From a virus: 64,000 bases of DNA. This document shows, one piece after another, positions 2,123 to 43,594 of this stretch. The DNA lies in IMG/VR virus record IMGVR_UViG_3300025254_000001. One strand, 5' to 3'. The notes under the pieces were generated by a model. The model made no database searches. It was not told the origin of the DNA and saw nothing but the letters and a program-made list of their open reading frames with translations. Positions within the stretch are counted from its first letter, which is position 1, and every line of letters starts with the position of its first letter. The position numbers were made by a program, and so were the translations under genes.

Positions 2123-4126
2123 ATGAAACGCGCCTATTCGACCCTCGAAATCAAGGCCATTGGCGACGCCGGCGGCAAGCGCACGTTCACCGGCATCGCC
2201 TCGACGCCGTCGACCGACCTGATGGACGACGTCGTGATCCCGACCGGCGCGAAGTTCAAGCTGCCCGTGCCGCTGCTGTGGGGCCATGACTCGGACGACC
2301 CGATCGGCTGGGTGACCGCCGCGCGCATCTCTGCCAAGGGCATCGAGGTGGACTGCGAGGTCTACGACGAGCCCACGCCCGGCGCGCTCAAGGACTGCCT
2401 GGACACCTACTGGCAAATGCTCAAGGCCAAGCTCGTGCGCGGCCTGTCCATCGGCTTCAGCGCGATCGAGACCGCCCGCATCGAGGGCACCTACGGCCTG
2501 AAGTACCTGTCCTGGAACTGGCTCGAATTGTCCTGCGTGACGATCCCCGCCAACCAGGAGGCATCGATCACCGCCATCAAAGCGATCGACCAGGAGCAAC
2601 GACGCGCCGCGTCTGGCGCTGCTCGGGTCGTTCGCCTCAACCGGCCCGTCACGCGGGCCACCAATACACCGCCCGGCGTCTCGGGAATTCATCAATTCTC
2701 GAAAGGAAACGCCGTGAAGATCAGTGAACAAATCGCAGCCTTTGCTGCCAAGCGCGTCACCGCGGAAGAACGCATGGACGCCATCATGGCCAAGAGCGGG
2801 GACGAAGGTACCTCGCTCGACGAGCATGAAAGCGAGGAGTACGACGGCCTCGTCTCCGAAGTCAAGCGCATCGACGAGCACATCGAGCGTCTGAAGACGC
2901 ACGAGGCCCGCGTCGTCGCGCGCGCCACGCCGGTGACGGACCGGACCGTCGGCGGTGCCGGTGGGCAGGAGCAAGGCGGCGTCGAGCTGCGCGGTGGCGT
3001 CATCAGCGTCCGGCCGAACGTGGAGAAAGGCATCGCCTTCGCCCGCTACGCCATCGCGCTGGGCCGCGCCAAGGGCAACATCATGCACGCGGCCGAAATC
3101 GCCAAGCAGTGGAACGACACCACGCCCGAAGTCGCGATGTTCATCAAGCAGATCGTGCAGTACGGCTCGGTCGATGCCCTGATGAAGACCGCGGTGGCCG
3201 CCGGCACCACGTCGGACTCGGCCTGGGCCGGCCCGCTGGTCTACGCGCAGAACATGGTGAGCGAGTTCATCGAGTTCCTGCGCCCGCAGACCATCATCGG
3301 CCGGCTGCCCCAGCTGCGCCGCGTGCCGTTCAACATCCGCATCCCGCGCCAGACCGCTGGCACGTCCGGCACGTTCGTCGGCGAGGGTCTGCCCACTCCG
3401 GTGCAGAAGGCGTCGTTCGACGCGCTGACGCTCACCTGGGCCAAGGCGTCGACCATCGCGGTGCTGACCCAGGAGCTGGTGACGATGAGCAACCCGGCCG
3501 CCGACGCGCTGGTGCGCGCCGACCTGGCCGCGGGCATCGCCGCCTACCTGGACAAGCGCTTCATCGACCCGAGCTACGCGGGCGTGGCCAACGTCTCGCC
3601 GGCCTCGGTCTCGAACGGCGTGGTCTCGCGCCAGGCCAGCGGCGCGACCCTGGCGGCTCTGGACCAGGACGTCGCCTACGTCCTGCAGCAGGTCGCTGCG
3701 GCCGACGTGCCGCTGTCCTCGGCGATCTGGCTGATGTCGCCGAGCGAGGCGATCTCGCTGGGCGCGATCCGCACCGCCTACGGCGATCCGGCGTTCCCGA
3801 ACCTGGGCGTGGATGGTGGCACGTTCAAGGGCCTGCCCGTCATCACGTCCAACAGCGTGGTGTCGAGCGGCTCGCCGGGCGAGCAGCAGATTTTCCTGCT
3901 GGTGCAAGACCAGATCCTGCTGGCCGACGACGGCCAGATGCTTCTGGACATGAGCACCGAGGCGTCCGTGCAGATGAACGATGCGCCGAGCGCTGGCGCG
4001 CAATCGCTGGTTTCGCTCTGGCAGAACGGCATGGTCGGCCTGAAGTGCGACCGCTGGATCAACTGGGCCAAGCGCCGTTCGTCGGCCGTCCAGTACATCG
4101 AGGCCGCGCAGCGCTACGGCTCGTGA
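2123..4126 (+). CDS. Prohead protease / delta-like coiled coil / HK97-fold major capsid protein fusion
   Basis: 667 aa. The N-terminus (MKRAYSTLEIKA...FTGIASTPSTDLMDDVV...LLWGHD) resembles HK97 prohead protease. The middle is charged coiled coil. The C-terminal ~400 aa resemble HK97-family MCP (FIEFLRPQT...TWAKASTIAVLTQELV). SD TGGAG upstream. Confidence 0.8.
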   Translation: MKRAYSTLEIKAIGDAGGKRTFTGIASTPSTDLMDDVVIPTGAKFKLPVPLLWGHDSDDPIGWVTAARISAKGIEVDCEVYDEPTPGALKDCLDTYWQMLKAKLVRGLSIGFSAIETARIEGTYGLKYLSWNWLELSCVTIPANQEASITAIKAIDQEQRRAASGAARVVRLNRPVTRATNTPPGVSGIHQFSKGNAVKISEQIAAFAAKRVTAEERMDAIMAKSGDEGTSLDEHESEEYDGLVSEVKRIDEHIERLKTHEARVVARATPVTDRTVGGAGGQEQGGVELRGGVISVRPNVEKGIAFARYAIALGRAKGNIMHAAEIAKQWNDTTPEVAMFIKQIVQYGSVDALMKTAVAAGTTSDSAWAGPLVYAQNMVSEFIEFLRPQTIIGRLPQLRRVPFNIRIPRQTAGTSGTFVGEGLPTPVQKASFDALTLTWAKASTIAVLTQELVTMSNPAADALVRADLAAGIAAYLDKRFIDPSYAGVANVSPASVSNGVVSRQASGATLAALDQDVAYVLQQVAAADVPLSSAIWLMSPSEAISLGAIRTAYGDPAFPNLGVDGGTFKGLPVITSNSVVSSGSPGEQQIFLLVQDQILLADDGQMLLDMSTEASVQMNDAPSAGAQSLVSLWQNGMVGLKCDRWINWAKRRSSAVQYIEAAQRYGS

Positions 4127-4145
4127 TCGCCTGACGAGCCCCACG

Positions 4146-4188
4146 AGGCCGGCGCGTAGCTCAGGGGCGCGCCGGCCCTTCCTTTTTC
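4146..4188 (+). terminator. Intrinsic terminator after the capsid gene
   Basis: 10-bp GC stem GGCCGGCGCG/CGCGCCGGCC with an 11-nt loop, then CTTCCTTTTTCT. Confidence 0.6.
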
Positions 4189-4203
4189 TGGAGGCCCTCT
4201 TTC

Positions 4204-4623
4204 ATGATGAACAGCTACCAGACTCGACGCCTCATTGCGCTGCGCAACCTTCGCCACGAGGGCCAGAACGCGGCGCCTGGCGACGAGGTCTTCGCGACCC
4301 CCGTCGACGCCGAATACCTCGTGCGCATGGGAGATGCTCGCCATGCAACGGGCGAGCACATCGCTGCCAAGGCGCCCGCGCCCGCCGCCCAGGCGCCCGC
4401 CGCGCCCGCCCGCCGGCGTGGCCGCCCGACCAACGCCGAGCTTGCGGCGCGCGCAGCATCTGCGCCCGCGCCGGCGAGCGAGCCCGCCGCCGATCCCATC
4501 GAGATCGCGGCAGCGGACCCGGACCCGGCGCCCGCCGGCCATGCCGACACGGACATGACGACGGACAACACGAGTGCCCTGGTGCGCGCGTCTGACGTCG
4601 CCGACAGCGCATCGGGGGACTAG
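4204..4623 (+). CDS. Hypothetical Ala/Pro-rich protein with AT-hook-like RRRGRPT motif
   Basis: 139-aa ORF between the capsid and portal genes. Its stop abuts the portal GTG start. Confidence 0.5.
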   Translation: MMNSYQTRRLIALRNLRHEGQNAAPGDEVFATPVDAEYLVRMGDARHATGEHIAAKAPAPAAQAPAAPARRRGRPTNAELAARAASAPAPASEPAADPIEIAAADPDPAPAGHADTDMTTDNTSALVRASDVADSASGD

Positions 4624-6234
4624 GTGCGACTCCTCGGCTTCGACATCAGCCTGCGCCGAAAGAGCGCGGCCCCGGCCGGCCTGGTGCCGCTGGGCTCCGC
4701 GGTCTGGGGCTGGCTCCGAGAGCCGTTCGCGGGTGCCTGGCAGCGCAGCGTGCAGCAGGACGGGCATGAGGCGCTGCTGGCGTTCGCCGCGGTCTTCGCG
4801 TGCGTCTCGCGCATCGCCTCGGACATCGCCAAGCTGCGCGTGCGCCTCGTCCAGCAGGACGGCGCCATCTGGGATGAAGTCACCGCGCAGTCGCCATTCT
4901 GGGGACCACTGCGCAAGCCCAATAGCTACCAGACGCGAATCCAGTTCCTGACGTCGTGGGTGATCTCGAAGCTGCTCTACGGAAACACCTTCGTGCTCAA
5001 GGTGCGCAACGACGCGCGAGGCCTGGTCACCGAGATGCACGTGCTGCATCCGCGCCTGGTCACGCCGCTGGTGGCCGAGGATGGCTCGGTCTACTACCGC
5101 CTGGGCGCCGACATGCTCGCGGAGAAGCCACTCGGCGACACGGTGCCGGCCAGCGAGATCATTCACGACCGCGGCATGACGCTGTTCCACCCGCTGGTGG
5201 GGGTCTCGCCGATCTACGCCTGCGGCGCCGCGGCCACGCAGGGCAACCGCATCCAGAGCAACAGCGCGCGGTTCTTCGAGAACATGAGCCGGCCGTCCGG
5301 CATGCTGACCGCGCCGGCCAGCATCACCGACGAGACGGCTGCGCGCCTGAAGCGCGAATGGGAAGAGAACTTCTCGGCCCAGAACATCGGACGCGTCGCG
5401 GTGCTCGGCGATGGGCTCAAGTACGAGACCATGACCATCGACGCGGTCGACGCGCAGCTGATCGAGCAGCTGCGGTGGACCGGCGAGGACGTCGCGCGCG
5501 CGTTCGGCGTGCCCGGCTACAAGATCGGCGTGGGCCCCATGCCCCTGAACAACAACGTCGAGGCGCTGGAGCAGCAGTATTACACCGGCACCCTGCAGAC
5601 CCTCATCGAGAGCATCGAGGTGCTGCTCGATGAGGGCCTGGAAATGCCCACCGGCATGGGCAGCGAGTTCGATCTCGATGGCCTGCTGCGCATGGACACC
5701 GCCACCATGTACGACTCGCTCGGCAAGGTGGTGGGCGCCGGGATCATGGCGCCCAACGAGGCGCGCGCGCGCGTGAACCTGGCCGGCGTGGCCGGCGGCG
5801 ATACGCCGTACATGCAGCAGCAGAATTGGTCGCTCGCGCAGCTCGATCGCCGCGACATCGTGGCCGACAAGCCGGGCGTCGCCTCGCCGCCGGCGCCGGC
5901 GCCCATGCCCGCCGGCACGCCGGCCGCCGCGCCGCCGCCGCCCGAGCCGAGCAAGGCGCTGGTCGAGAGCGTCGAAAAGACCGTCTCGCAGCTCGGTGAG
6001 CTGACGCAATCTGTCCAGGCTTCGGCCGACCGCTCGGCGCTCGCCGAGGCCTCGGTCAAGTCGATGCTGGAGTCCGCGCTCGCGGACATTCCCGCGGCCG
6101 TCAAGTCGGCCGTGGCCGAGCGCGCGGCCGAATTCGCAGGCCAGCGTGACGAAGACGAGGACGACGGCACCTCGGAGCTTTGCAAGCGCGGCCTGCATGC
6201 GGGCTTCAAGGAGATGCTTTATGCGCCCCGCTGA
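4624..6234 (+). CDS. Portal protein (HK97 family-like)
   Basis: 536 aa with portal-like motifs (LLYGNTFVLK, VSPIYACG, ARFFENMSRPSGML, EDVARAFGVPGYKIG). GTG start immediately after the upstream stop. Confidence 0.85.
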   Translation: MRLLGFDISLRRKSAAPAGLVPLGSAVWGWLREPFAGAWQRSVQQDGHEALLAFAAVFACVSRIASDIAKLRVRLVQQDGAIWDEVTAQSPFWGPLRKPNSYQTRIQFLTSWVISKLLYGNTFVLKVRNDARGLVTEMHVLHPRLVTPLVAEDGSVYYRLGADMLAEKPLGDTVPASEIIHDRGMTLFHPLVGVSPIYACGAAATQGNRIQSNSARFFENMSRPSGMLTAPASITDETAARLKREWEENFSAQNIGRVAVLGDGLKYETMTIDAVDAQLIEQLRWTGEDVARAFGVPGYKIGVGPMPLNNNVEALEQQYYTGTLQTLIESIEVLLDEGLEMPTGMGSEFDLDGLLRMDTATMYDSLGKVVGAGIMAPNEARARVNLAGVAGGDTPYMQQQNWSLAQLDRRDIVADKPGVASPPAPAPMPAGTPAAAPPPPEPSKALVESVEKTVSQLGELTQSVQASADRSALAEASVKSMLESALADIPAAVKSAVAERAAEFAGQRDEDEDDGTSELCKRGLHAGFKEMLYAPR

Positions 6235-7438
6235 CATTGCCGACCTGCTGAAGGCGCTCGCGATCGACGTGCGCGACTTCGTCGGGTCGTCCAGCGACGT
6301 GCTCGCCAAGCGCATCGACGCCTTGGACCAGCGGCTCGGCGAGCTGCCGGCGCCGATGGATTCCGACGCCGTCGCCAAGCTGGTGGACGCCCAGGTCACC
6401 CGCGCCCTCGGCGACTTCGTCGTGCAGGGCCTGGAGCAGGTCATCGAGCGCCTTGCCGCGGTCGAGGCGCGCGCGCCGGTTGACGGCCAGAAGGGAGACA
6501 AGGGCGATCCGGGTGAGCCGGGCGCCGCCGGCGCCGATGGCCAGGACGGACGCGATGCCGACCCCGCGGTGATCGTCGAAGAGGTCCAGCGCGCGGTCGC
6601 GGCGCTGCCCAAGCCCGCGGACGGCAAGGATGCCGACGCTGATGAGATCGCCGGGCGCGTGCTCGCCGAGGTGGTCAAGCAGATCCCGGAGCCGGTCGAC
6701 GGCAAGGATGGCCGCGACGGCGTGGACGGCAAGGATGGCGTGAGCGTCGACCTGGCCGAGATCCAGCGCATGGTGGACGCCGCGGTCGCCGCGCGCCTGG
6801 CCGAAGCGCTGGCCGCGCTGCCGGTGCCCAGGAATGGCCTGGACGGCAAGGACGGGCGCGACGGCAAGGACGGCCGTGATGGGCTCGATGGCGCCGATGG
6901 ACGCGATGCGCTGCAGCTGGAGGTGCTCGACGCGCTCGACGTCGAAAAGCGCTACCCGCGTGGCACCTTCGCGTCCTGGCGCGGCGGCCTCATCCGTTCG
7001 TTCCGGGCGACCGATCCGCTCAAGGACGCGCCCGAGCTGGAAAAGGCCGGCTGGGCGGTCGTCCTCGACGGCTTCGCCGGCCTCGACTCGACCGAGGGGA
7101 GTGACATGCGGAATTTCGGGCTGTGCTTCATCCGCACGACGGGCAAGGAGCAGACGCTGTCGTTCTTCTCGGCGGCGATGATCTGGCGCGGCATCTGGAC
7201 GGCCGAGCGCGACTACGAGCGCGGCGACGCGGTCACCTACGACGGCAGCATCTGGCACTGCGAGCGCCCCACCAGGTCGCGGCCGGGCACGCCGGCGAGC
7301 GCTGACGACTGGAAGCTCAGCGCCAAGCGGGGCCGCGATGGCAAGGACGGCCTCAAGGGCGAGAAGGGCGACCGTGGCGCCGAAGGCCGGCCTGGTCGCG
7401 ACCTCACGCAGCTCGGGTTCGACGGCAAGAAGACATGA
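6221..7438 (+). CDS. Collagen-like (Gly-X-Y) repeat protein with C-terminal CBM5/12-like motif
   Basis: Several GXY runs (GDKGDPGEPGAAGADGQDGRD; GKDGRDGVDGKDG; GLDGKDGRDGKDGRDGLDGADGRD; GRDGKDGLKGEKGDRGAEGRPGRD). Also a GDAVTYDGSIWHC...DDWKL motif. Strong SD AAGGAG 7 nt upstream of ATG 6221. Confidence 0.75.
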   Translation: MRPADIADLLKALAIDVRDFVGSSSDVLAKRIDALDQRLGELPAPMDSDAVAKLVDAQVTRALGDFVVQGLEQVIERLAAVEARAPVDGQKGDKGDPGEPGAAGADGQDGRDADPAVIVEEVQRAVAALPKPADGKDADADEIAGRVLAEVVKQIPEPVDGKDGRDGVDGKDGVSVDLAEIQRMVDAAVAARLAEALAALPVPRNGLDGKDGRDGKDGRDGLDGADGRDALQLEVLDALDVEKRYPRGTFASWRGGLIRSFRATDPLKDAPELEKAGWAVVLDGFAGLDSTEGSDMRNFGLCFIRTTGKEQTLSFFSAAMIWRGIWTAERDYERGDAVTYDGSIWHCERPTRSRPGTPASADDWKLSAKRGRDGKDGLKGEKGDRGAEGRPGRDLTQLGFDGKKT

Positions 7439-8049
7439 CAGCTGCCTTCACGATCGCGCGCCTGTGGCCGGAAGAGACCGTCGCGGTGCTGGCCAGCGGG
7501 CCGAGCATGTCGGCCGACGTCGCCCGCCAGGTGTTCGACGCGATGGTCCCGGCGATCGTCATCAACAACACCTTCCGGCTGGCGCCCTGGGCCGGCATGC
7601 TCTACGCGGCCGATGGCGCCTGGTGGCGCGCGAACCCTGACGCGCTCGCCTTCCGCGGCCTCAAGGTCACGGTCGACGACGTCGCCGGCACGCGCAAGCT
7701 GCGCATCAGCGGTCCCGGCGGGTTCGACCCGCACCCGGGCGCGGTGCGCTCGGGCGGGCACAGCGGCTACCAGGCGGTGCACATCGCGATCCATGGCGGC
7801 GCGCGCCGCATCCTGCTGTGCGGCTTCGACATGCACGGCACGCACTGGCACGGGCCGCACGTCGAGCCCCTGCGCAACACCGCAGCCGGCACCTATGGGC
7901 GCTGGGTCGAGCGCTTCGCCGAGCTACAGGAGCCGGCCCGGGAGCGCGACATCGAGATCCTGAATTGCACGCCGGGCAGCGCGCTCAAGTGCTTCCCGAT
8001 GGTCGACCTGGCCGACGCGCTGGCCGAGCGAACATGCGCCGCGCGCTGA
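7435..8049 (+). CDS. Putative glycosyltransferase-like protein (DUF115/sialyltransferase-like GPS motif)
   Basis: 204 aa. LASGPSMS...VINN...YAADGAWW...SGGHSGYQAVHIAI..LLCGFDM pattern. ATGA overlap with the collagen-like gene stop. The family call is tentative. Confidence 0.4.
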   Translation: MTAAFTIARLWPEETVAVLASGPSMSADVARQVFDAMVPAIVINNTFRLAPWAGMLYAADGAWWRANPDALAFRGLKVTVDDVAGTRKLRISGPGGFDPHPGAVRSGGHSGYQAVHIAIHGGARRILLCGFDMHGTHWHGPHVEPLRNTAAGTYGRWVERFAELQEPARERDIEILNCTPGSALKCFPMVDLADALAERTCAAR

Positions 8050-8795
8050 ACTTGCTGCGTGAGTCGCTCCACTACCGGCGAGGGGCATTCGACGCTGGCC
8101 TGCAGGCGAACGGGTTTCGCCTGACGCACCATCTTCCCGACCCCGAGCCGGGCGACCTGCTGCTGATCTGGAATCGGCACGGCGGCGACCACGAGACCGC
8201 GCTGCGCTTCGAGGCGGCCGGCGCTCGAGTTCTGGTGGCCGAGAACGGCTACCTGGGCAAGAGCTGGCTCGGCGGCAAGTGGTTCGCGCTCGCCTGGAAC
8301 CACCACAACGGCGCGGGCACCTGGCCTGATGGCGGCCCGCAGCGTTGGCAGGCCCTCGGCGTGGAGCTGGCCCCCTGGAAGCTCGATGGCGACGTGAACC
8401 TGGTCTTCGAGCAGCGCGGCATTGGCGAGCCGGGTGTCGCGTCGCCGCGGGGCTGGGCGGGCCGGGTCGCGACGCGCGTGCATGGCCGCATCCGCTGGCA
8501 CCCGGGCGCCGCGGCGCCGGCGGTCAAGCTCGAAGATGAGCTGGCCGACGTCTGGCAATGTTTCACGTGGAATAGTGGAGCAGCGCTGCTCGCGCTGATG
8601 CGCGGCGTGCCGGTGTTCTACGACTGCCCGACCTGGATTGGCGCGGGCGCCGCGCTGCCGCTGTCCGAATTCGGCAAGCAGGAACCGCGGCGCGACGACG
8701 CGGCGCGCTTGGCAATGTTTTGCCGAATGGCCTGGGCGCAATGGACGCTCGACGAGATCCGCAGCGGCGAGGCGCTCTACCGGCTGCTGCGATGA
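8034..8795 (+). CDS. Putative capsule-type (KpsS/KpsC-like) glycosyltransferase
   Basis: 253 aa with an ENGYLGKSW-type motif reminiscent of Capsule_synth proteins. Overlaps the upstream gene by 16 nt. Confidence 0.4.
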   Translation: MRRALNLLRESLHYRRGAFDAGLQANGFRLTHHLPDPEPGDLLLIWNRHGGDHETALRFEAAGARVLVAENGYLGKSWLGGKWFALAWNHHNGAGTWPDGGPQRWQALGVELAPWKLDGDVNLVFEQRGIGEPGVASPRGWAGRVATRVHGRIRWHPGAAAPAVKLEDELADVWQCFTWNSGAALLALMRGVPVFYDCPTWIGAGAALPLSEFGKQEPRRDDAARLAMFCRMAWAQWTLDEIRSGEALYRLLR

Positions 8796-9643
8796 ATCCC
8801 TCGCGTCTTCTCTTCACCGGACGGGGAACCTCCGGCAGCTGGTCCATTCGCGGCGAGCAGCTCGGCCACGCGCTGGGCGCGAACGTGATCCCGGATGCGC
8901 GCCACCTTGGGCGCTTCGACCTGGCGGTGCTGGTCAAACGCGCGACGCCTGACCTGCTGACCTGCCTGCGGCTAGCCAAGATGCCCATCGTCTGGGACAT
9001 CGTCGACAGCTGGCCGCAGCCGCTGGGCAACACCTGGGACAAGTCGGCCTGCCTGGCGTGGCTGCGCCTGCAGGTCAAGCACATCCGGCCGGTCGCCCTG
9101 GTCGCGGCCACCGAGGCGATGGGCCTGGACTGCCAGGAGTTCGGGCTTCCCGTGCTGGTGCTGCCTCACCACGCCCGGCCTGGCCAGCGCGTGAATCCGA
9201 TCCGCGAGCGTGTGCGAGCCGTGGGCTATCAGGGCGGCGTGCAGTACCTGGGCTCGTGGGCCGCGGGGCTCGAAGCGACGTGCCGCGCGCGCGGCTGGCG
9301 CTTCGTGGTCAACCCGGTCGAGCTGGCCGAGCTGGACATCGTGGTGGCCGTGCGCGAGCCGATCGGCTACGCCCCGCGGACCTGGAAGTCGGGCGTGAAG
9401 GCGGCCAATGCCCAGGGCAGCGGAACGCCCTGCGTGCTGAACCGCGAGATGGGCTACATCGAGACCGCGTGCGGCGCCGAGCGCTGGGCGGACACGCCCG
9501 CCGAGATGGACGCCGCGTTCGACTCGCTCATCGAGCACGACACCCGCCTGCGCATTGCCGGCCAGCTTCAGCTGGCGGCGCCGCGCCTGGACGACATCGC
9601 GAGGGCCTACTCGGCGTGGCTAAACGGACTGTCGAGATCCTGA
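8792..9643 (+). CDS. Putative GT-B-like glycosyltransferase
   Basis: 283 aa. ATGA overlap with the upstream stop. The C-terminal region looks like a sugar-nucleotide-binding domain (KAANAQGSGTPCV). Confidence 0.4.
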   Translation: MNPSRLLFTGRGTSGSWSIRGEQLGHALGANVIPDARHLGRFDLAVLVKRATPDLLTCLRLAKMPIVWDIVDSWPQPLGNTWDKSACLAWLRLQVKHIRPVALVAATEAMGLDCQEFGLPVLVLPHHARPGQRVNPIRERVRAVGYQGGVQYLGSWAAGLEATCRARGWRFVVNPVELAELDIVVAVREPIGYAPRTWKSGVKAANAQGSGTPCVLNREMGYIETACGAERWADTPAEMDAAFDSLIEHDTRLRIAGQLQLAAPRLDDIARAYSAWLNGLSRS

Positions 9644-9675
9644 GCGTCAAGCCGCCGTCGCCGGCGGCCGTGCCG

Positions 9676-10413
9676 ATGCTCGACGCGCTCAGGAAGGCGG
9701 CGGTCCAGTGCGGCGACGCGGTGCGGCTGACCAGCCGCTACGAGGGTCGAAGCGACTGGCTCGTGCTGTACGGCGTGGGCTACGGAGCGCACGACGACGC
9801 GCGTCGTCGGCAGGTGCTCCGCGGCGGCCATGCAGCGCTGCTCGATCTGGGCTACTTCGGCAAGGCCAAGGATGGGCTCGGCTACACGCGGGTCTCGGTC
9901 GACCGGGACCACCCGCAGCACCTGCTCGATCGCGCGCCGGCCGACGCGGCGCGCTGGGCGCGCCATGACCTGGCGCTGCGCGATGAGGCGGACCCGGCCG
10001 GCCCCATCGTGCTCGTGGGCCTCGGGCGCAAGTCGCGCGAGTACCTCAAGGCCAGCGATTGGGAGGGCCGCAAGCTGGCCGAGCTGCAGGAGCGGTTTCC
10101 TGGGCGGCGGATTCTCCATCGCCCCAAGCCGAAGCAGGAGTTCGTGAGGCTGAGCTGCGATCGCGACGTCACGACGCCGATCGCGCAGCTGTTGCACGGC
10201 GCCTCGCTGGTGGTCTGCAGGCACTCGAACGTGGCGATCGACGCCGCGGTGGCGGGCGTGCCCATCGAGGTCGAGGACGGCGCAGCGCAGTGGCTCGCGG
10301 CGCGCGAGTTCACGCGCGCCAACCGGCTGGACTTCCTGCAGCGCGTCTCGTGGTTTCAGTGGCAGCCGGGCGAAGCGCCGGAGGCCTGGCAATTCATCAA
10401 GGGGCTCGGATGA
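9676..10413 (+). CDS. Putative glycosyltransferase-like protein
   Basis: About 245 aa. The C-terminal LLHGASLVVCRHSNVAIDAAVAGVPIEV resembles a GT-B C-terminal motif. Start uncertain (GTG 9670 or ATG 9676). Confidence 0.35.
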   Translation: MLDALRKAAVQCGDAVRLTSRYEGRSDWLVLYGVGYGAHDDARRRQVLRGGHAALLDLGYFGKAKDGLGYTRVSVDRDHPQHLLDRAPADAARWARHDLALRDEADPAGPIVLVGLGRKSREYLKASDWEGRKLAELQERFPGRRILHRPKPKQEFVRLSCDRDVTTPIAQLLHGASLVVCRHSNVAIDAAVAGVPIEVEDGAAQWLAAREFTRANRLDFLQRVSWFQWQPGEAPEAWQFIKGLG

Positions 10414-10928
10414 GGCTGAAGTTGAACGTCTGCTGCGGCGGGCGCGTGCTGGCGGGTTGGACGAACATCGACATCGTCGCGAGCGAGGGCGCGCTGGCGC
10501 CCGACATCCTGTGCGACGCGCTGAAGGTGCCCCTGCCCGACGCGTGCGCCGTGGAGATCATGTGCATCCATGGGTTCGAGCACTTCCACCGGTGGGATTG
10601 CGATGCGCTGCTCGAAGAGTGGAAGCGCATGCTCCTGCCTGGCGGCCTGCTAGTGCTGGAGCTGCCCAACCTGGCCAAGTGCTGCGAGAACATCCTCAGC
10701 GGCTTCACGGGCGCGGGCAAGCACCCCGACCAGGCGGGAATGTGGGGCCTGTACGGCGATCCGCGCATGCGCGACCCGTTCATGTGCCACCGCTGGGGCT
10801 GGACGCCTGATTCGCTGCGTGCGATCTTGGCCGAACACGGGTTCGAGAAGATCCGCGAGGAGCCCACGCAGCACCATCCGGCCGGGCGCCTGCACCGCGA
10901 CATGCGCATGGTGGCGCGCCTGCCCTGA
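10410..10928 (+). CDS. Class I SAM-dependent methyltransferase
   Basis: 172 aa. LNVCCGGRVLAGWTNID...LLPGGLLVLELP motifs. ATGA overlap with the upstream stop. Confidence 0.7.
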   Translation: MRLKLNVCCGGRVLAGWTNIDIVASEGALAPDILCDALKVPLPDACAVEIMCIHGFEHFHRWDCDALLEEWKRMLLPGGLLVLELPNLAKCCENILSGFTGAGKHPDQAGMWGLYGDPRMRDPFMCHRWGWTPDSLRAILAEHGFEKIREEPTQHHPAGRLHRDMRMVARLP

Positions 10929-10936
10929 GCGCTCGC

Positions 10937-11608
10937 ATGCTGCACGTCTTTTTCGGCCACGACGAGCGCGCGGAGGCCGGAACCACCGCGTTCATGCACT
11001 CGGTGATCGCGCGCGCGACGCAGCCGCTTGCGTTGACGCCGATCACGCGTCTGGCCACGGCCGGCGTCAAGCAGGGCAGCAACGCGTTCACGTTCCGGCG
11101 CTTCCTGGTGCCGTGGATGCTCGACTACCGCGGCTGGGCGGTGTTCGTCGATGGCGCCGACATGCTGTGCCGTGCCGACATCAGCGAGCTGTTCGACCTG
11201 GTCTATCACAACGATGCGGTGCGGGTGGTCAAGCACGCGTACCGCACGCGGCACCCGCGCAAGTACCTCGGCACGCCGATGGAGTGCGACAACCCGGACT
11301 ATGAGCGCAAGCAGTGGGCCAGCGTGATGCTGATCAATTGCTCGCACTACGCCTGGCGCCACGTGACGCCGGAGTTCGTGGCCGAGTCGAATGCGCTGGA
11401 CCTGCTGCAGCTGCGGTTCATCCCGGCCGAGCGCATCGGGTCGTTGCCCAAGGAGTGGAACTGGCTCTGCGATGAGGACGGCGAGAACGTCGACGCGAAG
11501 CTGCTGCATTTCACCGCGGGCATCCCGGCGTTCCCCGAGCACGCGCGCGCGCCGATGGCCGAGGAGTGGCGCGCGGCGCTGCGCGCCTCGTCCACCGCAA
11601 CAGGCTGA
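10937..11608 (+). CDS. Glycosyltransferase family 8-like protein
   Basis: 223 aa with GT8-like layout (HVFFGHDE..., VFVDGADMLCRADISELF, LLHFTAGIP). Confidence 0.55.
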   Translation: MLHVFFGHDERAEAGTTAFMHSVIARATQPLALTPITRLATAGVKQGSNAFTFRRFLVPWMLDYRGWAVFVDGADMLCRADISELFDLVYHNDAVRVVKHAYRTRHPRKYLGTPMECDNPDYERKQWASVMLINCSHYAWRHVTPEFVAESNALDLLQLRFIPAERIGSLPKEWNWLCDEDGENVDAKLLHFTAGIPAFPEHARAPMAEEWRAALRASSTATG

Positions 11609-11613
11609 AAGCC

Positions 11614-12294
11614 ATGAGCAACCCCAAGATCATCACCTACCCGACCACCGAGCCGATCACGCTCGAAGAGGCGCACCTGCACCTGCGGCTCGATGTCTAC
11701 GACAGCCCGCCGGTGCACCCCGACGATCCGCTGATCCTGGGACAGATCACGGCCGCGCGCGAATGGGTCGAGAAGTTCACCGGCCGCTGCATCGTCCCGT
11801 GCGTGCTGGAGCTGGCGCTCGATGACTTCCCGCACCACCAGCGCAGCAGGCATCGCTTCACGGGCTGGCTCGCCCATGCGTACCACCTGGTCGACGGGGG
11901 CTGCGCGATGCCGATCCGGCTTCCGGGCGGCCCGGTCGTCGCGCTGGAGAGCGTCACCTACGTGGACGCCGCGGGCGTCGAGCAGACCTTGACCGACGTC
12001 CAGTTCGACACCCACGAGGAGCCGGCGCGCGTGCTGCCCGCGGTGGGCGCGACCTGGCCGGTGGCGCAGCAGCAGATGGCGGCCGTGCGCGTGCGCTACG
12101 CCGCCGGCTACAGCGCGCCCGGCGACTCGCCCAACCCGGCCCCGCTGCCCGTGCCGATCAAGATGGCGATGCTGCTGGTGCTCGGGCACCTGTACGAAAA
12201 CCGCGAGAACACGACCGACGTCGCGCTGACCGAGGTGCCGCTGGGCGCCGTCGCGCTCTTGCGGCCCTACCGGCTCGAATCGGCGATGGCCTGA
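11614..12294 (+). CDS. Head-tail connector (gp6-like) protein
   Basis: 226 aa. The N-terminal ITLEEAHLHLRLD motif is typical of gp6-like connector / DNA-packaging proteins. It is the last gene of the head block. Confidence 0.65.
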   Translation: MSNPKIITYPTTEPITLEEAHLHLRLDVYDSPPVHPDDPLILGQITAAREWVEKFTGRCIVPCVLELALDDFPHHQRSRHRFTGWLAHAYHLVDGGCAMPIRLPGGPVVALESVTYVDAAGVEQTLTDVQFDTHEEPARVLPAVGATWPVAQQQMAAVRVRYAAGYSAPGDSPNPAPLPVPIKMAMLLVLGHLYENRENTTDVALTEVPLGAVALLRPYRLESAMA

Positions 12295-12325
12295 CGCCCG
12301 CCGGCGGTCCATCAGCAACCTCTAC

Positions 12326-12500
12326 GCGCCGGCCGCGGCGGTAGGCAAGGGCAATCGATCGGGTTTTCCGATCCTCGCGGCCTGGCGGTAGGCGGCGACT
12401 AGGCAATTCGTCTGGCCTATGCGCGGGCCAGGCACCGTAGGCGGTGCCAATCGGTTGATTTCAGCTAAGTCCGCGGGTTGGCGGTAGGCGGAATCTGTCG
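12326..12500. repeat. Four iteron-like direct repeats, core GGCGGTAGGC
   Basis: Cores at 12337, 12384, 12433 (CACCGTAGGC) and 12480, spaced 47/49/47 bp. Most are followed by CAATCG/CAATTCG. Confidence 0.65.
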
Positions 12501-12605
12501 ATGAATTGCAGCTATAAACGCCGACCTGAATTAGACCGGAGTAATCGGCTCCGGCGGCCAGGGCGCAAAAATAATATCTATCCTCGGCGGCTCGAATTAG
12601 TTCAC

Positions 12606-12804
12606 GCCAAAAATATCGGCGCGCGGATTTAATAGACCTCAGCTTTTGCACAATATTTAAGCGGTGCACTTCTAAGCTATTGATTTAATTGAGAAAAACG
12701 TCTTCGATAGCTGAGTTTTCGCGAGGTGGGTAAGGGGGTTGTGGGGCCAAAGCGAAAAATCGCTTGGCGGGCCTTTACGCGCGTTTTAGCGGGGTGTGAT
12801 TTCG
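12606..12804 (+). repeat. AT-rich non-coding element, copy A (paralog of 56172-56348)
   Basis: Aligns with copy B: GCCAAAAAT..CGGC..TTAA..CTAAGCTnTTGATTT..TCGAnAGC..AGGTGG.AAGGGGTT.T.GGGCC..CGAAAAATCGC..TTTACGC. Indels break any common reading frame. Confidence 0.7.
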
Positions 12805-12907
12805 CACAGTAGTTCGCCGGCGCGCGTCGTGCAATTAATTGAAATCTTGAGCGGAGAGACTTGACAATGGCCGGAATTCGTTGGCGGTTTGCGCGAGTGG
12901 GGTCGGC

Positions 12908-13270
12908 GTGAGGGCCGGCCAGCTCAACGCCCGCCTGGTGGTCGAGCGCCCCGGGGTGTCGCGCGACGACATGGGCTCCGAGCTGATCACGTGGGTGAAG
13001 GTCGCCACCGTCTGGGCGCACATCGCGCCGATCGTTCCCGCGCGCGGGCGCGAGCCGCTGCTGGCCGACCAGCTCCAGGGCCAGGCCGACACCCGGATCA
13101 CGATCCGCTGGTCCGATCAGATCGACGGCATGTCGGCCAAGTGGCGCCTGCGCTTTGCCACGCTCAAGAACCCGATCATCTACAACATCGCGACGCCGCC
13201 CGCGCAGCTCGACATGGGCCAGCGCACGGTCGTCATCATTTGCAAATCCGGCGTCAATGAGGGGCAGTGA
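12908..13270 (+). CDS. Head-tail adaptor (head-closure) protein
   Basis: About 120 aa. AGQLNARLVVERP...WVKVATVWAHI...RITIRW pattern is typical of SPP1 gp16/HK97-like adaptors. GTG 12908 preferred over TTG 12881. Confidence 0.7.
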   Translation: MRAGQLNARLVVERPGVSRDDMGSELITWVKVATVWAHIAPIVPARGREPLLADQLQGQADTRITIRWSDQIDGMSAKWRLRFATLKNPIIYNIATPPAQLDMGQRTVVIICKSGVNEGQ

Positions 13271-13740
13271 TGGCCACCACGCGCAGCGTGCAGGTCTCGG
13301 GCCTGCGTGAACTCGGCGAGTCGCTCAAGAAGCTGGGCACGGATATGCAGTCGCGCGTTGCGCGTCGTTGCACCAATGCAGGCGCCCAGGTCGTCAAGAA
13401 GGCGGCGATTGCGGCGGTCAACGACCCGCGCGCCAAGAAGCCCTACCGGGTCGGGGATGAGCTGGTCTTCCCGGGCAACATCAGCCGCAACATCATCGTC
13501 AAGCGCATCCCGCCGGGGCAGACCGACCTAACGTCTGAGCACATCGTCGCGGTGCGTGGCAAGGCGGCGCATGGCTTCGCGTCTCACATCGCGGCCTGGC
13601 AGGAATTTGGCACCGTGAACATGCCGGCCAAGCCGTTCATGACGCCCGCCTTCGATGCGAGTCAGGGCGACGCGCTCCAGGCGATGACCGACTCGCTGCG
13701 CGAGGACATCGCGGACGGCGTGAAGAAGGCGGGGGCCTGA
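13267..13740 (+). CDS. HK97 gp10-family neck protein
   Basis: 157 aa, positioned after the adaptor. Start overlaps the upstream stop. Confidence 0.65.
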   Translation: MMATTRSVQVSGLRELGESLKKLGTDMQSRVARRCTNAGAQVVKKAAIAAVNDPRAKKPYRVGDELVFPGNISRNIIVKRIPPGQTDLTSEHIVAVRGKAAHGFASHIAAWQEFGTVNMPAKPFMTPAFDASQGDALQAMTDSLREDIADGVKKAGA

Positions 13741-13744
13741 CCTG

Positions 13745-16066
13745 ATGACCGCGCCGCTCATCCTCTATACGGACTGCATCGACGGTCCGACTACGGGGGG
13801 CGAGGGCGGCAAGGGCTGCTACCTCGGCGTCTTCGGCACGGGCTTCGGCACCTTCGCGGATTGGGGCGTCTCCAACCACCTGACTATCGACGGCGTCGAG
13901 GTCGACAACTACCGCTGCCTGGACGCCGCGGTCGGCGTGGCCCTCCATGGCCCGCAGATCCAGCGCCTGGAGGTGCAGGTGGGCGCGCTGGGCGCGCCCG
14001 CGCCCGGCACGCCGCTGGCGATCGACATGACCGTGGGCGGCGTCAGCCCGTCGAACCCGACGTCGGGCGGTTTCCTGCTCGACCCCGTCGATGGCGAGGT
14101 GCTGTCGTTCACGCGTTCGCTCGTGGGGATCGTCTTCGTGGACCCGGCCACGGGCAGCAACTCCAACCCGGGCACGATCGCCTCACCGCTGGCCAACCTG
14201 CAGTCGGCGGACGCAGCCGCAGGGGCGATCCGCGCGGCGTCGGCATCGAACGCCACCGATGGCAGCCCGCCGCAGCACGTCATCCTGCGCGGCGGCTTGC
14301 ACCCGCAGCTCGGCTCCTCATCGACGCCGACTCGCAACTACGGCAGCTTCGCCAACCTGTTTCGCAATAGCGGCGCGCGCCCGCTGGGCGGCGCGAACCA
14401 GGGCAACCTGGTGATCAAGAGCTACCCGGGCCCGGCCGGCGCCAACGCGCCCGAGCTGGCGCGCTTTGAGCCCACCAGCGGCAACCACGCCGGCGCGGGC
14501 ATCCTCGGCAACGATTCCGCACGCGGCTCGCACGCGGGCTCGCCCGAGACCAACCCCTACGATGGCGATCCTGGTTGGGGCCGCGACTGGGTGCTCTCCT
14601 CGGTCAAGATCGCGAGCGCGCCGGACGCGCCGCGCGATGGCGCGCCGGTCAACTTCGATTCCGACGCGGACCGCTGCCGCCTGGTCAACTGCGACCTGGC
14701 CTGGCCCAGCACGCTGGGCACCTCGGGCGGCAACAACGGCGCCAAGGGCGGCGGCTTCACCGGCAACGGGTTCAAGCTGCGGGTCTATGGCCTGTATGTG
14801 CACAACGTCACCAATGGCGACGATGCGAACCAGAACCATGGTGGCTACATCGACGGCTCGAACGTCTGCGCCAAGAACCCGATCGTCGCCTACTGCCGCT
14901 TCGAGGACTGCAGCGGCGGCAACAGCTTCCAGACCTTCGACTCGCAGGCGTCGGACGTCATCACCGACCTGCGCTTCCACCACAACTCGGCGTTGCGCTG
15001 CAACAAGCACAACGTCAACGTCTCGCAGAACACCGAGAGCGGCGAGGTCCACGACAACATCCTGGTCGACGCCGGCGAGGCCAACATCCACGTCGAGGGC
15101 GGCCAGATTGCGGTCGCGGCCGGGGTCAAGTTCTTCAACAACACCTGCGTCGACTGGGGCCGGGTCATCGCTGGCCGGCCGTGCTTCTGGAACGATGGCG
15201 GCACCGGCTCGGGTTCGGTCGATTGGCGCAACAACATCGCGATGCGCCGCGCGGGCGCCGCTGGCACCGGGCCCTTCGTCATCTTCGACATGGACGGCAC
15301 GAACGCGTCCACGCACAACCTCTACTTCGACGCCACGGGCGTGCTGACCGGCGTTCCCGGTGGCGACACCGGCAGCGTCTATGGCGACCCGTTCTTCAGC
15401 GACCCGGCCGCCAACGACTTTTCGATTCAAGCCACCAGCCCGCAGAGCCCTGTGATCGACGCCGGCGCTTCGACGCTGACGGCGCGCACGCTCGCCTACC
15501 TGTTCAACGCGGTCGTGGCCCCGCCCGACGTCGGAGCCTACGAATTCGCGTCCGGCGCGCCCACGCCGTCGCCTTCACCGCCGCCCCCTTCACCGTCACC
15601 GCCGCCATCTCCTTCGCCGCCCCCGTCGCCCACGCCGTCGCCGGCACCCACTCCCGCACCGTCGCCACCTCCGGCGCCCACCCCGATGCCCTCCCTTTCG
15701 GTTCCGCAAGCCATCTTCGCGGCGCTCCGATCGCTGGTCGACGATCGCGTCTACCCGAACACGTTCCCGCAGGGAGACCCGCTGCCTGTGTGGCCCGCGG
15801 TGCGCTACACGATCGTGTCCACCAACCCGGCGCCAACCGTGTGCGGCAGTGACGGCGAGGACATCGATGACGTGACGGTGTTCATCGACGCCGTGGCGGT
15901 GACCTATCCCGCGATGCGGGCGCTGAAGGCGCAGGTGATCGCGGCGCTGGAAGACACCGATCCACCGTGCGTGCGCCAGAGCGGCGGCACCGAGACCTTC
16001 GACGGCGAGACGCGCACGAATCGCGCGATCTTGACCTACCTGTTCCAGCAGTCCTCGGCGCCGTAG
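13745..16066 (+). CDS. Fusion protein: IPT-like domain, right-handed beta-helix, Pro/Ser/Thr linker, DUF3168-like tail-terminator domain
   Basis: 773 aa. Beta-helix-type repeats (NHGGYIDGSN..., RFHHNSALRCNKHNVNV..., HDNILVDAGEANIHVEGG). Linker PSPSPPPPSPSPPPSPSPPPSPTPSPAPTPAPSPPPAPTP. The C-terminal ~125 aa (IFAALRSLVDDRVYPNTFPQ...VFIDAVA) look like DUF3168. Confidence 0.7.
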   Translation: MTAPLILYTDCIDGPTTGGEGGKGCYLGVFGTGFGTFADWGVSNHLTIDGVEVDNYRCLDAAVGVALHGPQIQRLEVQVGALGAPAPGTPLAIDMTVGGVSPSNPTSGGFLLDPVDGEVLSFTRSLVGIVFVDPATGSNSNPGTIASPLANLQSADAAAGAIRAASASNATDGSPPQHVILRGGLHPQLGSSSTPTRNYGSFANLFRNSGARPLGGANQGNLVIKSYPGPAGANAPELARFEPTSGNHAGAGILGNDSARGSHAGSPETNPYDGDPGWGRDWVLSSVKIASAPDAPRDGAPVNFDSDADRCRLVNCDLAWPSTLGTSGGNNGAKGGGFTGNGFKLRVYGLYVHNVTNGDDANQNHGGYIDGSNVCAKNPIVAYCRFEDCSGGNSFQTFDSQASDVITDLRFHHNSALRCNKHNVNVSQNTESGEVHDNILVDAGEANIHVEGGQIAVAAGVKFFNNTCVDWGRVIAGRPCFWNDGGTGSGSVDWRNNIAMRRAGAAGTGPFVIFDMDGTNASTHNLYFDATGVLTGVPGGDTGSVYGDPFFSDPAANDFSIQATSPQSPVIDAGASTLTARTLAYLFNAVVAPPDVGAYEFASGAPTPSPSPPPPSPSPPPSPSPPPSPTPSPAPTPAPSPPPAPTPMPSLSVPQAIFAALRSLVDDRVYPNTFPQGDPLPVWPAVRYTIVSTNPAPTVCGSDGEDIDDVTVFIDAVAVTYPAMRALKAQVIAALEDTDPPCVRQSGGTETFDGETRTNRAILTYLFQQSSAP

Positions 16067-16092: not shown

Positions 16093-16147
16093 GCCGGCTT
16101 CTTCGCAGTTGCCGGCTCTTTATGCCCGCCTCGTGCGGGCTTTTTTT
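16093..16147 (+). terminator. Tandem intrinsic terminators upstream of the major tail gene
   Basis: GCCGGC...GCCGGC hairpin, then GCCCGC-CTCGT-GCGGGC followed by TTTTTTT. Confidence 0.6.
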
Positions 16148-16171
16148 CGTCCCTTCGAAAGGAGCCCCGAA

Positions 16172-16834
16172 ATGAGCGGCGGCAAGCGATTCAAGTTCCA
16201 AGGCAGCACCATCGCGGTGTCCATCGGCTTCGATGCGGTCTCGCCGTCCAAGGCGATCACCGGCATCAGCAAGGCCAACCCTGCGGTCGTCACCAGCGCG
16301 GGCCACGGCTTCGTCGATGGCGACGTCGTGCTGATCACCGGCGTGGCCGGCATGACCGAGGTCAACGCGGGGGTCTACATCGTGGACGCCTTGTCTTCGA
16401 GCACCTTCGCGCTCGTCGACACCGATTCCACCGCGTGGGGCACCTACACCAGCGGCGGCCACGCGGACGAGGCGCAGTTCTCGAACTGGTGCGAACTCAC
16501 CGGCTACAACCACCAGGGCGGCACCAAGACCGAGAACGACGCGTCGAGCCTGTGCTCGACCGCCAAGGAATACGAGCTGGGCCTGGCCGACTTCGGCACG
16601 ACGCAGTTCGACTTCCACTACGCGCCGCAGACGTCCATCCAGCTCGCGATGGCCGCCTACAACATCAGCGGCGACCCGATCGCATGCAAGGTGACGCTGC
16701 CCAAGTCGGGCGGCGTGCGCACGCAGATCGGCTTCATCACCCAGATGTCCGAGACGGCTTCGGTCAACGGGCTGTGGACGGCCACGATGACCATCCGCAA
16801 CACCGGCAAGCCGTTCGACCAGGCGGGTGCCTGA
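16172..16834 (+). CDS. Major tail (tube) protein
   Basis: 220 aa with SD AAAGGAG upstream. It sits before the chaperone and tape-measure genes and is Thr/Gly-rich like a tube protein. Confidence 0.7.
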   Translation: MSGGKRFKFQGSTIAVSIGFDAVSPSKAITGISKANPAVVTSAGHGFVDGDVVLITGVAGMTEVNAGVYIVDALSSSTFALVDTDSTAWGTYTSGGHADEAQFSNWCELTGYNHQGGTKTENDASSLCSTAKEYELGLADFGTTQFDFHYAPQTSIQLAMAAYNISGDPIACKVTLPKSGGVRTQIGFITQMSETASVNGLWTATMTIRNTGKPFDQAGA

Positions 16835-43570: not shown

Positions 43571-43594
43571 CGCCCGGTAAAGCCGGGCGTTTTT
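43571..43594 (+). terminator. Hairpin plus T-run after the tRNA-His fragment
   Basis: CGCCCGG-TAAAG-CCGGGCG followed by TTTTT. It would terminate the reconstituted tRNA gene after integration. Confidence 0.5.

Follow-up and report, generated by a model that had tools for sequence, protein, structure and literature searches.

A conserved, phage-restricted cassette of glycosyltransferases and a methyltransferase in a head-morphogenesis operon as a candidate virion glycosylation system

Covalent glycosylation of phage particles has been demonstrated so far, to our knowledge, only in a few mycobacteriophages, in which it alters the recognition of the particles by antibodies. The capsids of Che8 (cluster F1) are described as bearing covalently bound glycans with a shielding role (Freeman 2023, cited in PMC11256854), and in the Corndog mycobacteriophages (cluster O) an O-methyltransferase and three glycosyltransferases are encoded right after the portal gene (PMC4351075). 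Here, we describe a block of six genes, g1 to g6, found in 64,000 nucleotides of viral DNA (IMG/VR record IMGVR_UViG_3300025254_000001, hereafter the window, to which all positions refer unless another locus is named), which occupies 7435-11608 on the + strand among the head genes of a temperate siphophage. The analogy with the cluster O mycobacteriophages, drawn in an earlier note on this DNA, is apt: also in the window, phage glycosyltransferases and a methyltransferase lie within the virion genes, with which they are predicted to be co-expressed. [quoted passage not shown]

The block combines five proteins with glycosyltransferase folds or signatures and one methyltransferase. The earlier note had counted four or five glycosyltransferase-like proteins and an S-adenosylmethionine (SAM) methyltransferase, and Pfam and PHROG matches, family profiles and AlphaFold2 (AF2) models compared by Foldseek give a count of five and one; in these profile and structure checks the glycosyltransferase-like character held for five of the six open reading frames (ORFs). 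The first gene, g1 (7435-8049), encodes a 204-amino-acid (aa) protein of the MptE-like/DUF115 type (Maf, GT42 sialyltransferase-like), the whole of which aligns to the 178-position core profile of PHROG 4603, ‘alpha-2,3-sialyltransferase’ (E 1.2e-41). The window protein scores 19.2 bits against Pfam MptE-like (PF01973), below the cut-off of 34.6, and at the family level 26 of 29 members match this domain (E<1, best E 4.5e-7); the family profile also finds the GT42 sialyltransferase Cst-II weakly (E ~0.015-0.02), in an alignment that covers the N-terminal GPS motif and the segment SG...G.(K/R).I.L.G.D. In the family alignment G22, D60 and G130 are invariant and D132 is nearly so. The Maf flagellin glycosyltransferases also belong to the MptE-like family; the substrate-binding domains that flank the Maf core are absent from g1, whose 204 aa correspond to the catalytic core alone. 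The enzyme probably uses a CMP-sugar.

Homologs of g1 are found in cultured phages, namely at the same place of the operon in the Pseudomonas phages D3 (orf7), PMG1, IME307 and PAJU2 (ORF010) and, in the case of PmgO, in P1 (27% identity, E 3e-18), with identities of 27-37% and E values of 1e-18 to 1e-25 for PmgO, D3 orf7 and PAJU2 ORF010. In the D3-like phages the gene stands between capsid/head-tail adaptor and connector-region genes, with no recognised glycosyltransferase adjacent; a neighbour of the D3 homolog, orf12 (PAJU2_gp11-like), was considered and discarded, being unrelated to g2, g3, g4 and g6 in profile comparison and giving no Pfam hit. In P1, pmgO belongs to the late-promoter operon pmgL-pmgQ, in which the PHROG-annotated glycosyltransferase PmgQ is encoded three genes downstream, and lytic growth proceeds without pmgO, pmgP and pmgQ (PMC10695390). 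The late-operon place of PmgO, together with its dispensability, fits an accessory decoration.

The second and fourth genes, g2 (8034-8795, 253 aa) and g4 (9616-10413, 265 aa, with a GTG start from which the N-terminal residues are kept in homologs), gave no hit against Pfam, NCBIfam or the sequences of the Protein Data Bank (PDB), and sequence-profile searches of the PDB with g2, g3 and g4 returned nothing useful, so that the fold of g2 and g4 was found only through structure prediction. The two proteins are paralogs, as judged by hhalign (probability 98%, E 1.5e-13). The AF2 models, built from alignments of homologs, reached a pLDDT of 92.6 for g2 and 94.7 for g4, and in Foldseek searches of the PDB each of the top 18 hits of g2 belongs to KpsC, KrkA or WbbB, with a probability of 1.0 and a TMq of 0.37-0.59, as do nearly all of the top 21 hits of g4 (probability 1.0, TMq up to 0.57), among which there is one SenB. 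Against BFVD, the neighbours include a CcrColossus protein and, from Tetraselmis virus 1, an entry named ‘capsule polysaccharide biosynthesis protein’. According to these models, both g2 and g4 are predicted to have the modified GT-B-like fold of KpsC, WbbB and KrkA.

Retaining beta-Kdo transferases carry two motifs, QXXXD, the Asp of which is the nucleophile, and the CMP-binding (K/R)XHP, which is common to sialyltransferases and Kdo transferases (PMC12887879). The corresponding positions in g2 and g4 were equated with those of the Kdo transferases through motif order and predicted secondary structure, not superposition, and the counts for g2 refer to an alignment of 73 diverse relatives. The RxHP motif of g2 (R154-W-H156-P157) is kept throughout the family, with R154 in 70, H156 in 73 and P157 in 72 of the 73 sequences, and E70, R128 and S181 are invariant. 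The Q-loop, Q127-R-G-I-G, comes after the preceding strand and its Q127 is present in 63/73; the sole acidic candidate for the Asp of QXXXD is at position 132 (Q+5), which is variable (E in 22, P in 17 and S in 17 of 73). E132 was tried as a Glu stand-in for the nucleophile and rejected, given this variation in the wider family. We did not file g2 as a retaining Kdo transferase, because RxHP is kept but the nucleophile is absent; it is plausible that its mechanism differs, for example through inverting catalysis with E70 as the base. The g2 family would be a large, unannotated group of phage-specific glycosyltransferases, which unites a predicted KpsC-like fold with a sialyl/Kdo-type CMP motif and a different catalytic arrangement.

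The other three enzymes are recognised mainly at the level of their families. Between the two paralogs, g3 (8792-9643, 283 aa) encodes a short GT-B protein (GT4/GT1-like), for which the window sequence gave no Pfam hit and an empty PDB profile search; among 34 homologs, 19 match Glyco_trans_1_2 (best E 4.2e-4) and six match Glyco_trans_4_4 (best E 6.8e-7). The product of g5 (10410-10928, 172 aa) is a class I SAM-dependent methyltransferase (Pfam Methyltransf_23, E 2.9e-6; Methyltransf_11, E 6.9e-6) with a weak NCBIfam match to the oligosaccharide methyltransferase MftM (E 0.0028). The last gene, g6 (10937-11608, 223 aa), encodes a GT8-like GT-A protein (PHROG 28018, E 6.3e-28), which reaches 16.2 bits against Pfam GT8 (PF01501), below the cut-off of 24.3; 13 of 25 members of its family match this domain (best E 4.4e-6) and the family profile finds the GT8 domain of WbbM (E 0.0057). 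Invariant in the g6 family are the metal-binding pair D72 and D75 and the C-terminal H191, the metal motif being DGAD in the window protein and DCD, DSD or DGD in distant members.

These genes form a unit well beyond a single genome. Relatives of g2 number 1,275 in a protein collection clustered at 90% identity, and a search of 1.84 billion proteins, clustered at 50% identity, gave 2,956 clusters, of which 274 reach E <= 1e-30; none of the relatives among the matches listed has a name or a Pfam domain. In IMG/VR, relatives of g2 were found on 177 contigs. The composition of the cassette was counted over 47 non-redundant viral loci with enough flanking DNA: all six genes are present in 31, g1 and g6 accompany g2 in 44, and g3 and g5, which co-occur, are present in 33 each, so g1, g2 and g6 look like the core of the cassette and g3 with g5 like an add-on. 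Dozens of independent contigs share the block of six genes, with identities of 35-70%, which makes it more than a chance assembly. Every surveyed occurrence is in a phage context, with virion-morphogenesis genes (fibre, capsid, connector, tail) wherever the flanks could be read; when one genome per bacterial species was searched, g2 was found in 11 loci, all beside phage portal or capsid genes, and no non-phage homolog appeared in these species-representative genomes (11/11 loci phage-like). The cassette is, then, a conserved and phage-restricted unit, abundant among phages whose hosts are Gram-negative.

The cassette is also tightly embedded in the late operon. The earlier note had placed six genes between the portal and the head-tail connector, and the six enzyme genes are indeed there, but the collagen-like gene that precedes them brings the number to seven. 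The coupling it had described is borne out: ATGA overlaps join neighbouring genes at 7435, 8792 and 10410, three longer overlaps measure 14 nt (portal/collagen), 16 nt (g1/g2) and 28 nt (g3/g4), and two junctions are gaps, one of 8 nt between g5 and g6 and one of 5 nt between g6 and the connector. A search of 4000-12838 detected no promoter-like site, and there the two terminator-like sites are weak and fewer than shuffled sequence gives, and an Rfam scan of 4000-13500 revealed no RNA element. An independently transcribed moron was, therefore, discarded as a description of the cassette, for which no promoter-like site and no convincing terminator was found within or at the borders. The absence of transmembrane segments, claimed from the outset, holds for all six proteins (maximum Kyte-Doolittle mean over 19 residues <=1.29), as does the position in the late virion operon away from int/att, unlike Gtr genes: the integrase gene is ~32 kb distant. 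As far as the gene layout can tell, the six genes probably share a transcript with the head genes, to which their translation is coupled as well. Folds and motifs of the enzymes, their solubility, the position in the operon and the conservation of the block are what the analysis shows.

The same layout bears on a different purpose for these enzymes, which would be to modify, from the prophage or in the late phase of infection, a glycoconjugate of the host envelope (the core of the lipopolysaccharide (LPS), the O-antigen or a lipid-linked glycan of the KpsC type); this could block the adsorption of progeny or competing phages or change the surface of the lysogen. In fact, the structural relatives of g2 and g4 (KpsC, WbbB and KrkA) are peripheral proteins, without membrane segments, that make capsule linkers and O-antigen caps, GT8 and GT4 are typical families of LPS-core enzymes, the phage is temperate, as its integrase indicates, and P1 PmgO lies downstream of both late and C1-controlled sigma-70 promoters. 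However, the cassette shows neither a promoter nor a terminator of its own, its translation is coupled to that of head genes, it never adjoins int/att nor comes with a flippase, a polymerase or Gtr-type membrane partners, its expression from the late operon would leave little time for export before lysis, and the g2 family is essentially restricted to phages. We regard envelope modification as unlikely.

Under the virion reading, the six genes would make up a late-expressed cytoplasmic module that uses the nucleotide sugars of the host. Of these, CMP-Kdo is made by every Gram-negative host; no gene for sugar-nucleotide synthesis was recognised among the window ORFs scanned, and for both reasons Kdo is the obvious candidate for the donor. 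In this proposal g1 and g2 would transfer a CMP-activated acidic sugar, for which Kdo is the most parsimonious choice, g6 (GT8-like) and g3 (GT-B) would add hexose-type sugars, g5 would O-methylate one sugar, and g4, which has diverged from g2, would act as its partner, possibly without catalysis. One or more virion proteins, of the capsid, head fibre or neck, would thereby receive a short oligosaccharide that is methylated in part, before or during assembly, like the glycan coat of some mycobacteriophages. Such a linkage has a parallel in the Maf enzymes, which O-glycosylate Ser/Thr of a cytoplasmic protein, can use CMP-Kdo and can form Ser/Thr-O-Kdo (bioRxiv 10.1101/2020.06.03.131540). The identity of the donor, the order in which the enzymes act, the protein acceptor and the effect on the particle are all things that we infer.

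Sugars could also be destined for the phage DNA, a chain being built on a hydroxylated pyrimidine before packaging to evade restriction. There is a precedent for this, since phage GT-A (GT8-like) and GT-B glycosyltransferases put mono- to trisaccharides, including Kdo, on the 5-hydroxymethylcytosine (5hmC) of DNA (bioRxiv 10.1101/2023.12.21.572611), and a late operon beside the portal would suit a modification made just before packaging. On the other side, the known DNA-glycosylation clusters are linked to base-hydroxylating genes and not to head genes, and Pfam searches of ~35 window ORFs found no cytosine C5-methyltransferase, TET/5mYOX dioxygenase or thymidylate-synthase-like hydroxymethylase, a scan that is incomplete because several small ORFs and ~2 kb of the genome outside the window fall beyond it. 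We consider DNA as the target very improbable, the least probable of the alternatives weighed here.

Several points weigh against virion glycosylation as we propose it. The glycan on the particle is predicted from the genes, and no acceptor was identified among the candidates looked at. The assignments of g1, g3 and g6 depend on sub-threshold or family-level matches. The QXXXD nucleophile is not conserved in the g2 family (73 sequences), and in g4 R169-P-K171-P (RPKP) replaces RxHP and LVGLGRKSR replaces the Q-loop; with no Q-loop Q, no acidic nucleophile residue and no HP motif, g4 may use another donor or be non-catalytic. The activity and donor of the two proteins are accordingly uncertain, as g2 lacks the nucleophile and g4 both motifs. 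The solubility of the enzymes, furthermore, is no proof of a protein target, because KpsC-type enzymes, also without membrane segments, act on lipid acceptors. Finally, depositors label two g1 homologs, PAJU2 ORF010 (locus L103, 6492-7061) and one in Klebsiella phage vB_KvM-Eowyn (LR881104.1, 2327-2863), as ‘structural protein’, so a non-enzymatic role could be possible for g1; should the label derive from proteomics of virions, particles may contain members of the g1 family.

Labels of this kind lead to the idea that some or all of the six proteins are not enzymes but virion or assembly parts with a glycosyltransferase fold, for example a sugar-binding neck or head accessory in the case of g1 and a pseudoenzyme scaffold in that of g4. 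The loss of both RxHP and Q-loop in g4, the missing QXXXD nucleophile in g2 and the occurrence of g1 in D3-like phages without a recognised neighbouring glycosyltransferase agree with it, as do the two labelled homologs of PAJU2 and Eowyn. However, those labels are depositor annotations, and the nucleotide- and metal-binding residues are invariant in deep alignments of the families (E70, R128, H156 and S181 in g2; D72, D75 and H191 in g6; G22, D60 and G130, with D132 nearly so, in g1), as one would expect for active enzymes. Moreover, a methyltransferase and four other glycosyltransferase types are inherited together as a block, which points to a pathway. That the proteins are structural parts is in our view improbable, clearly more so than a role at the host envelope.

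Among the possible acceptors, the first to be considered is the product of the gene immediately upstream of g1 (6221-7438, + strand), a collagen-like, fibre-like protein of 405 aa (PHROG 1289, E 3.2e-50). The interrupted Gly-X-Y repeats attributed to it by the earlier note are well supported (Pfam Collagen, 43.9 bits against a cut-off of 27.2, E 2.1e-11), with 29 triplets in four interrupted runs at residues 89-112, 161-175, 206-229 and 371-394; the CBM5/12-like tail is less so, as the CBM_5_12 match of 22 bits (E 1.7e-4) is under the cut-off of 26.2. The protein starts with a helical region and contains, at about residues 233-368, a conserved globular domain. This domain is 34-38% identical to ORF59 of BP-4795, a phage of E. 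coli, and to the C-terminal portion of proteins annotated as ‘portal’ in Stx phages. Gly-X-Y triplets range from 0 to 153 across its homologs. As an observation apart, the fibre family has a repeat unit of ~54 aa, formed by a helix followed by IP.P.DG.D (BP-4795 ORF59, locus L089, 6026-7411; IME307, locus L002, 4614-5618), in which phages of E. coli and Pseudomonas have short DG.D turns and metagenomic relatives have turns expanded to Gly-X-Y runs, up to the maximum of 153 triplets; this suggests that the collagen repeats arose in the family through the expansion of a short turn motif.

A specific pairing of the collagen-like protein with the cassette, as first proposed, finds no support in a wider comparison. 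The gene 5' of g1 is a collagen-like fibre in ~30 of the 74 loci read, notably immediately upstream of g1 in relatives with the same portal type; at other loci a capsid, connector, head-completion or tail gene stands upstream of g1, this place being taken in the Caulobacter phage CcrSC by the gene of a tail protein of 1,620 aa. Conversely, phage BP-4795 has a matching head module, including the fibre homolog ORF59, without any glycosyltransferase, and ORF59, homologous to the repeats and C-terminal domain of the fibre, has zero Gly-X-Y runs. The runs of the window protein, moreover, contain one Ser/Thr residue in their 29 triplets, and a collagen triple helix glycosylated on Thr as in BclA was discarded as an unlikely acceptor for this scarcity, which weighs against virion glycosylation as proposed here. 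The varying gene before g1, the fibre of BP-4795 without glycosyltransferase and the Ser/Thr-poor runs mean that collagen is only loosely tied to the cassette: the fibre is one acceptor candidate of several and no obligatory partner.

Another protein of the late region deserves a description of its own. In the interval from the HK97-gp10-like gene to the tail-tube gene, a 773-aa ORF (13745-16066, + strand) ends in 108 aa that match, with 63% identity, a Tail_completion_gp17 protein of 123 aa which a related contig (L008) encodes on its own; N-terminal to this gp17-like domain are ~610 Gly/Asn-rich aa without Pfam hit and a 45-aa Pro/Ser/Thr linker, APTPSPSPPPPSPSPPPSPSPPPSPTPSPAPTPAPSPPPAPTPMPS. 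It looks like a neck protein with a large appended domain on a linker of the type that holds O-glycosylation sites. As a general acceptor the linker was rejected, again to the disadvantage of virion glycosylation, as it is confined to this lineage: one other Pro/Ser/Thr-rich ORF, unrelated to it (in locus L088), was met among 96 related loci.

The genome that carries the cassette was mapped as follows. Since the DNA is G+C-rich (~68% across the 64-kb window), reading frames were chosen by a frame plot of third-position G+C (GC3) and start codons were then inspected, and the resulting map agrees with independent gene calls on identical public contigs. The window is a near-complete genome of a temperate siphophage, derived from metagenomes only; Logan and JGI contigs, as well as an ENA contig of 66 kb, contain the region in identical form, and a prophage-like contig of Variovorax sp. 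JS1663 is the nearest relative among isolate genomes. On the + strand, the late genes begin with the small (17-499) and large (426-2063) terminase and a prohead-protease/major-capsid fusion (2123-4126), followed by a 139-aa ORF, the portal (4624-6234; Pfam Phage_portal, E 4.2e-83; PHROG 2271, E 2.8e-123), the fibre gene and the cassette. After it come the head-tail connector (11614-12294, 226 aa; Pfam Phage_connect_1, E 1.1e-6; PHROG 442, E 2.3e-22) and then, in this order and on the same strand, the head-completion, HK97-gp10-like, tail tube, tape measure and distal tail genes. The integrase (43594-44805) and the RecT/exonuclease genes are on the strand opposite to the late genes.

Some features of this map stand apart from the cassette. 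In the portal/collagen-like region (4624-7438) the second frame is open back to 6146, and portal and fibre are a single ‘portal protein’ in PHROG 2271 (859 positions) and in many annotations of Stx1/Stx2c prophages, and two genes in the annotations of BP-4795 (locus L089, 4665-7411), PAJU2 and IME307; the single label may reflect a product fused by frameshift or an annotation artefact. At the boundary of connector and head-completion genes, in the middle of the late operon, there is a non-coding gap of ~590 bp (12295-12880) of lower G+C, present also in an identical contig (L003) and without Rfam match, which contains GGCGGTAGGC in three exact copies (12337, 12384 and 12480) and a fourth, degenerate one at ~12437, with a spacing of 47 or 96 nt between copies, as well as the sole sigma-70-like site of the region (12839-12868). 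The tail-tube protein (16109-16834, + strand) has an inserted domain at residues 61-121 (Pfam E1_FCCH, E 1.6e-11) that is found in related contigs as well. Downstream of the tail genes, a 336-aa ORF (30553-31563, + strand) matches the GH5 cellulase domain of Pfam (E 2.8e-14), and its product may degrade polysaccharides or take part in lysis. Upstream of the small terminase and already beyond the edge of the window, the identical contig (L003, 1-1386) encodes a protein of >467 aa with the Pfam domains DAM-like-phage1 and GNAT-phage-like, probably a DNA-modification enzyme.

A more detailed scheme, in which the Maf-like core of g1 and the KpsC-fold, HP-motif transferase g2, devoid of the canonical Asp nucleophile, put a Kdo-type or sialic-acid-like acidic sugar on virion proteins of phages with Gram-negative hosts and g6, g3 and g5 extend and methylate it, is on balance doubtful, if somewhat less so than a role at the host envelope. 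If true, it would represent the first virion glycan system outside the actinobacteriophages and a new mechanistic branch of the CMP-ulosonic-acid transferases, and the coat could serve as a mimic of the host's LPS core or as a shield for the particle. More generally, if the cassette decorates particles, virion glycosylation would be a widespread trait of phages, of relevance to phage therapy, through immune clearance, to adsorption and host range and to the stability of particles. The cultured carriers, Caulobacter phages CcrSC and CcrColossus, P1 (PmgO/PmgQ), D3 and PAJU2, allow this to be tested directly.

The cassette can be compared with several of the systems described so far. The products of seroconversion genes are membrane proteins, and the genes are found close to int/att or to tail-spike genes, with expression from the prophage. 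Like the Gtr-type cassettes of this kind, the window encodes glycosyltransferases of a temperate phage of a Gram-negative host; unlike them, its proteins have no hydrophobic segments, the integrase is far away and no promoter-like site is present within or just upstream of the cassette. With KpsC (GT107), WbbB (GT99) and KrkA (GT140), g2 and g4 share the predicted fold and g2 also the order of Q-loop, (K/R)XHP and Ser/Thr phosphate-binding turn within the C-terminal Rossmann domain. However, sequence similarity to these enzymes is not detectable, g2 and g4 are shorter (~250 aa vs ~320-400 aa), g2 is without the QXXXD Asp and g4 without the HP motif, and all the surveyed occurrences of g2 and g4 are in phage contexts. 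As in Maf and the GT42 enzyme Cst-II, the g1 family shows MptE-like matches, the GPS motif and the SG...G segment; unlike in Maf, g1 is a core of ~200 aa and the window protein scores below the Pfam cut-off.

Among cultured phages, P1 (pmgL-pmgQ), D3 (orf7) and PAJU2 (ORF010) resemble the window in having g1 homologs in late or morphogenetic operons, but contain no g2, g3, g4 or g6. Within the collection searched, g2 occurs in the cultured giant siphophages of Caulobacter only (CcrSC, CcrBL9, CcrPW, CcrColossus, Bertelyvirus). The block of CcrSC also consists of six genes, namely g1 (32% identity), g2 (40%) together with a paralog of it, a g6-like gene, a methyltransferase gene and a further ORF; it differs in gene order, in its place between tail-fibre and lysis genes, outside the head module, and in g3, which tblastn did not detect. 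The literature searched describes no function for the g1 homologs of D3, PMG1, IME307, PAJU2 and P1 or for the Caulobacter cassette genes. The earlier note's statement that no such collagen-plus-glycosyltransferase arrangement is known in a described proteobacterial siphophage thus needs qualifying, given the related cassettes of cultured Caulobacter phages and the g1 homologs of P1, D3 and PAJU2.

A close parallel is offered by the mycobacteriophages Che8 and Corndog, in which, as in the window, several soluble phage glycosyltransferases are encoded inside a structural operon, together, in Corndog, with an O-methyltransferase. The differences concern the host, here a Gram-negative proteobacterium, the enzymes, which are Maf/GT42-like, KpsC-fold (two proteins), GT8-like and short GT-B, and the state of the evidence, as the glycans of Che8 have been shown on the capsid whereas the present cassette is known from its genes. 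By this comparison, phage cassettes for virion glycosylation would be already known in kind, and what appears to be new here is the enzyme family.

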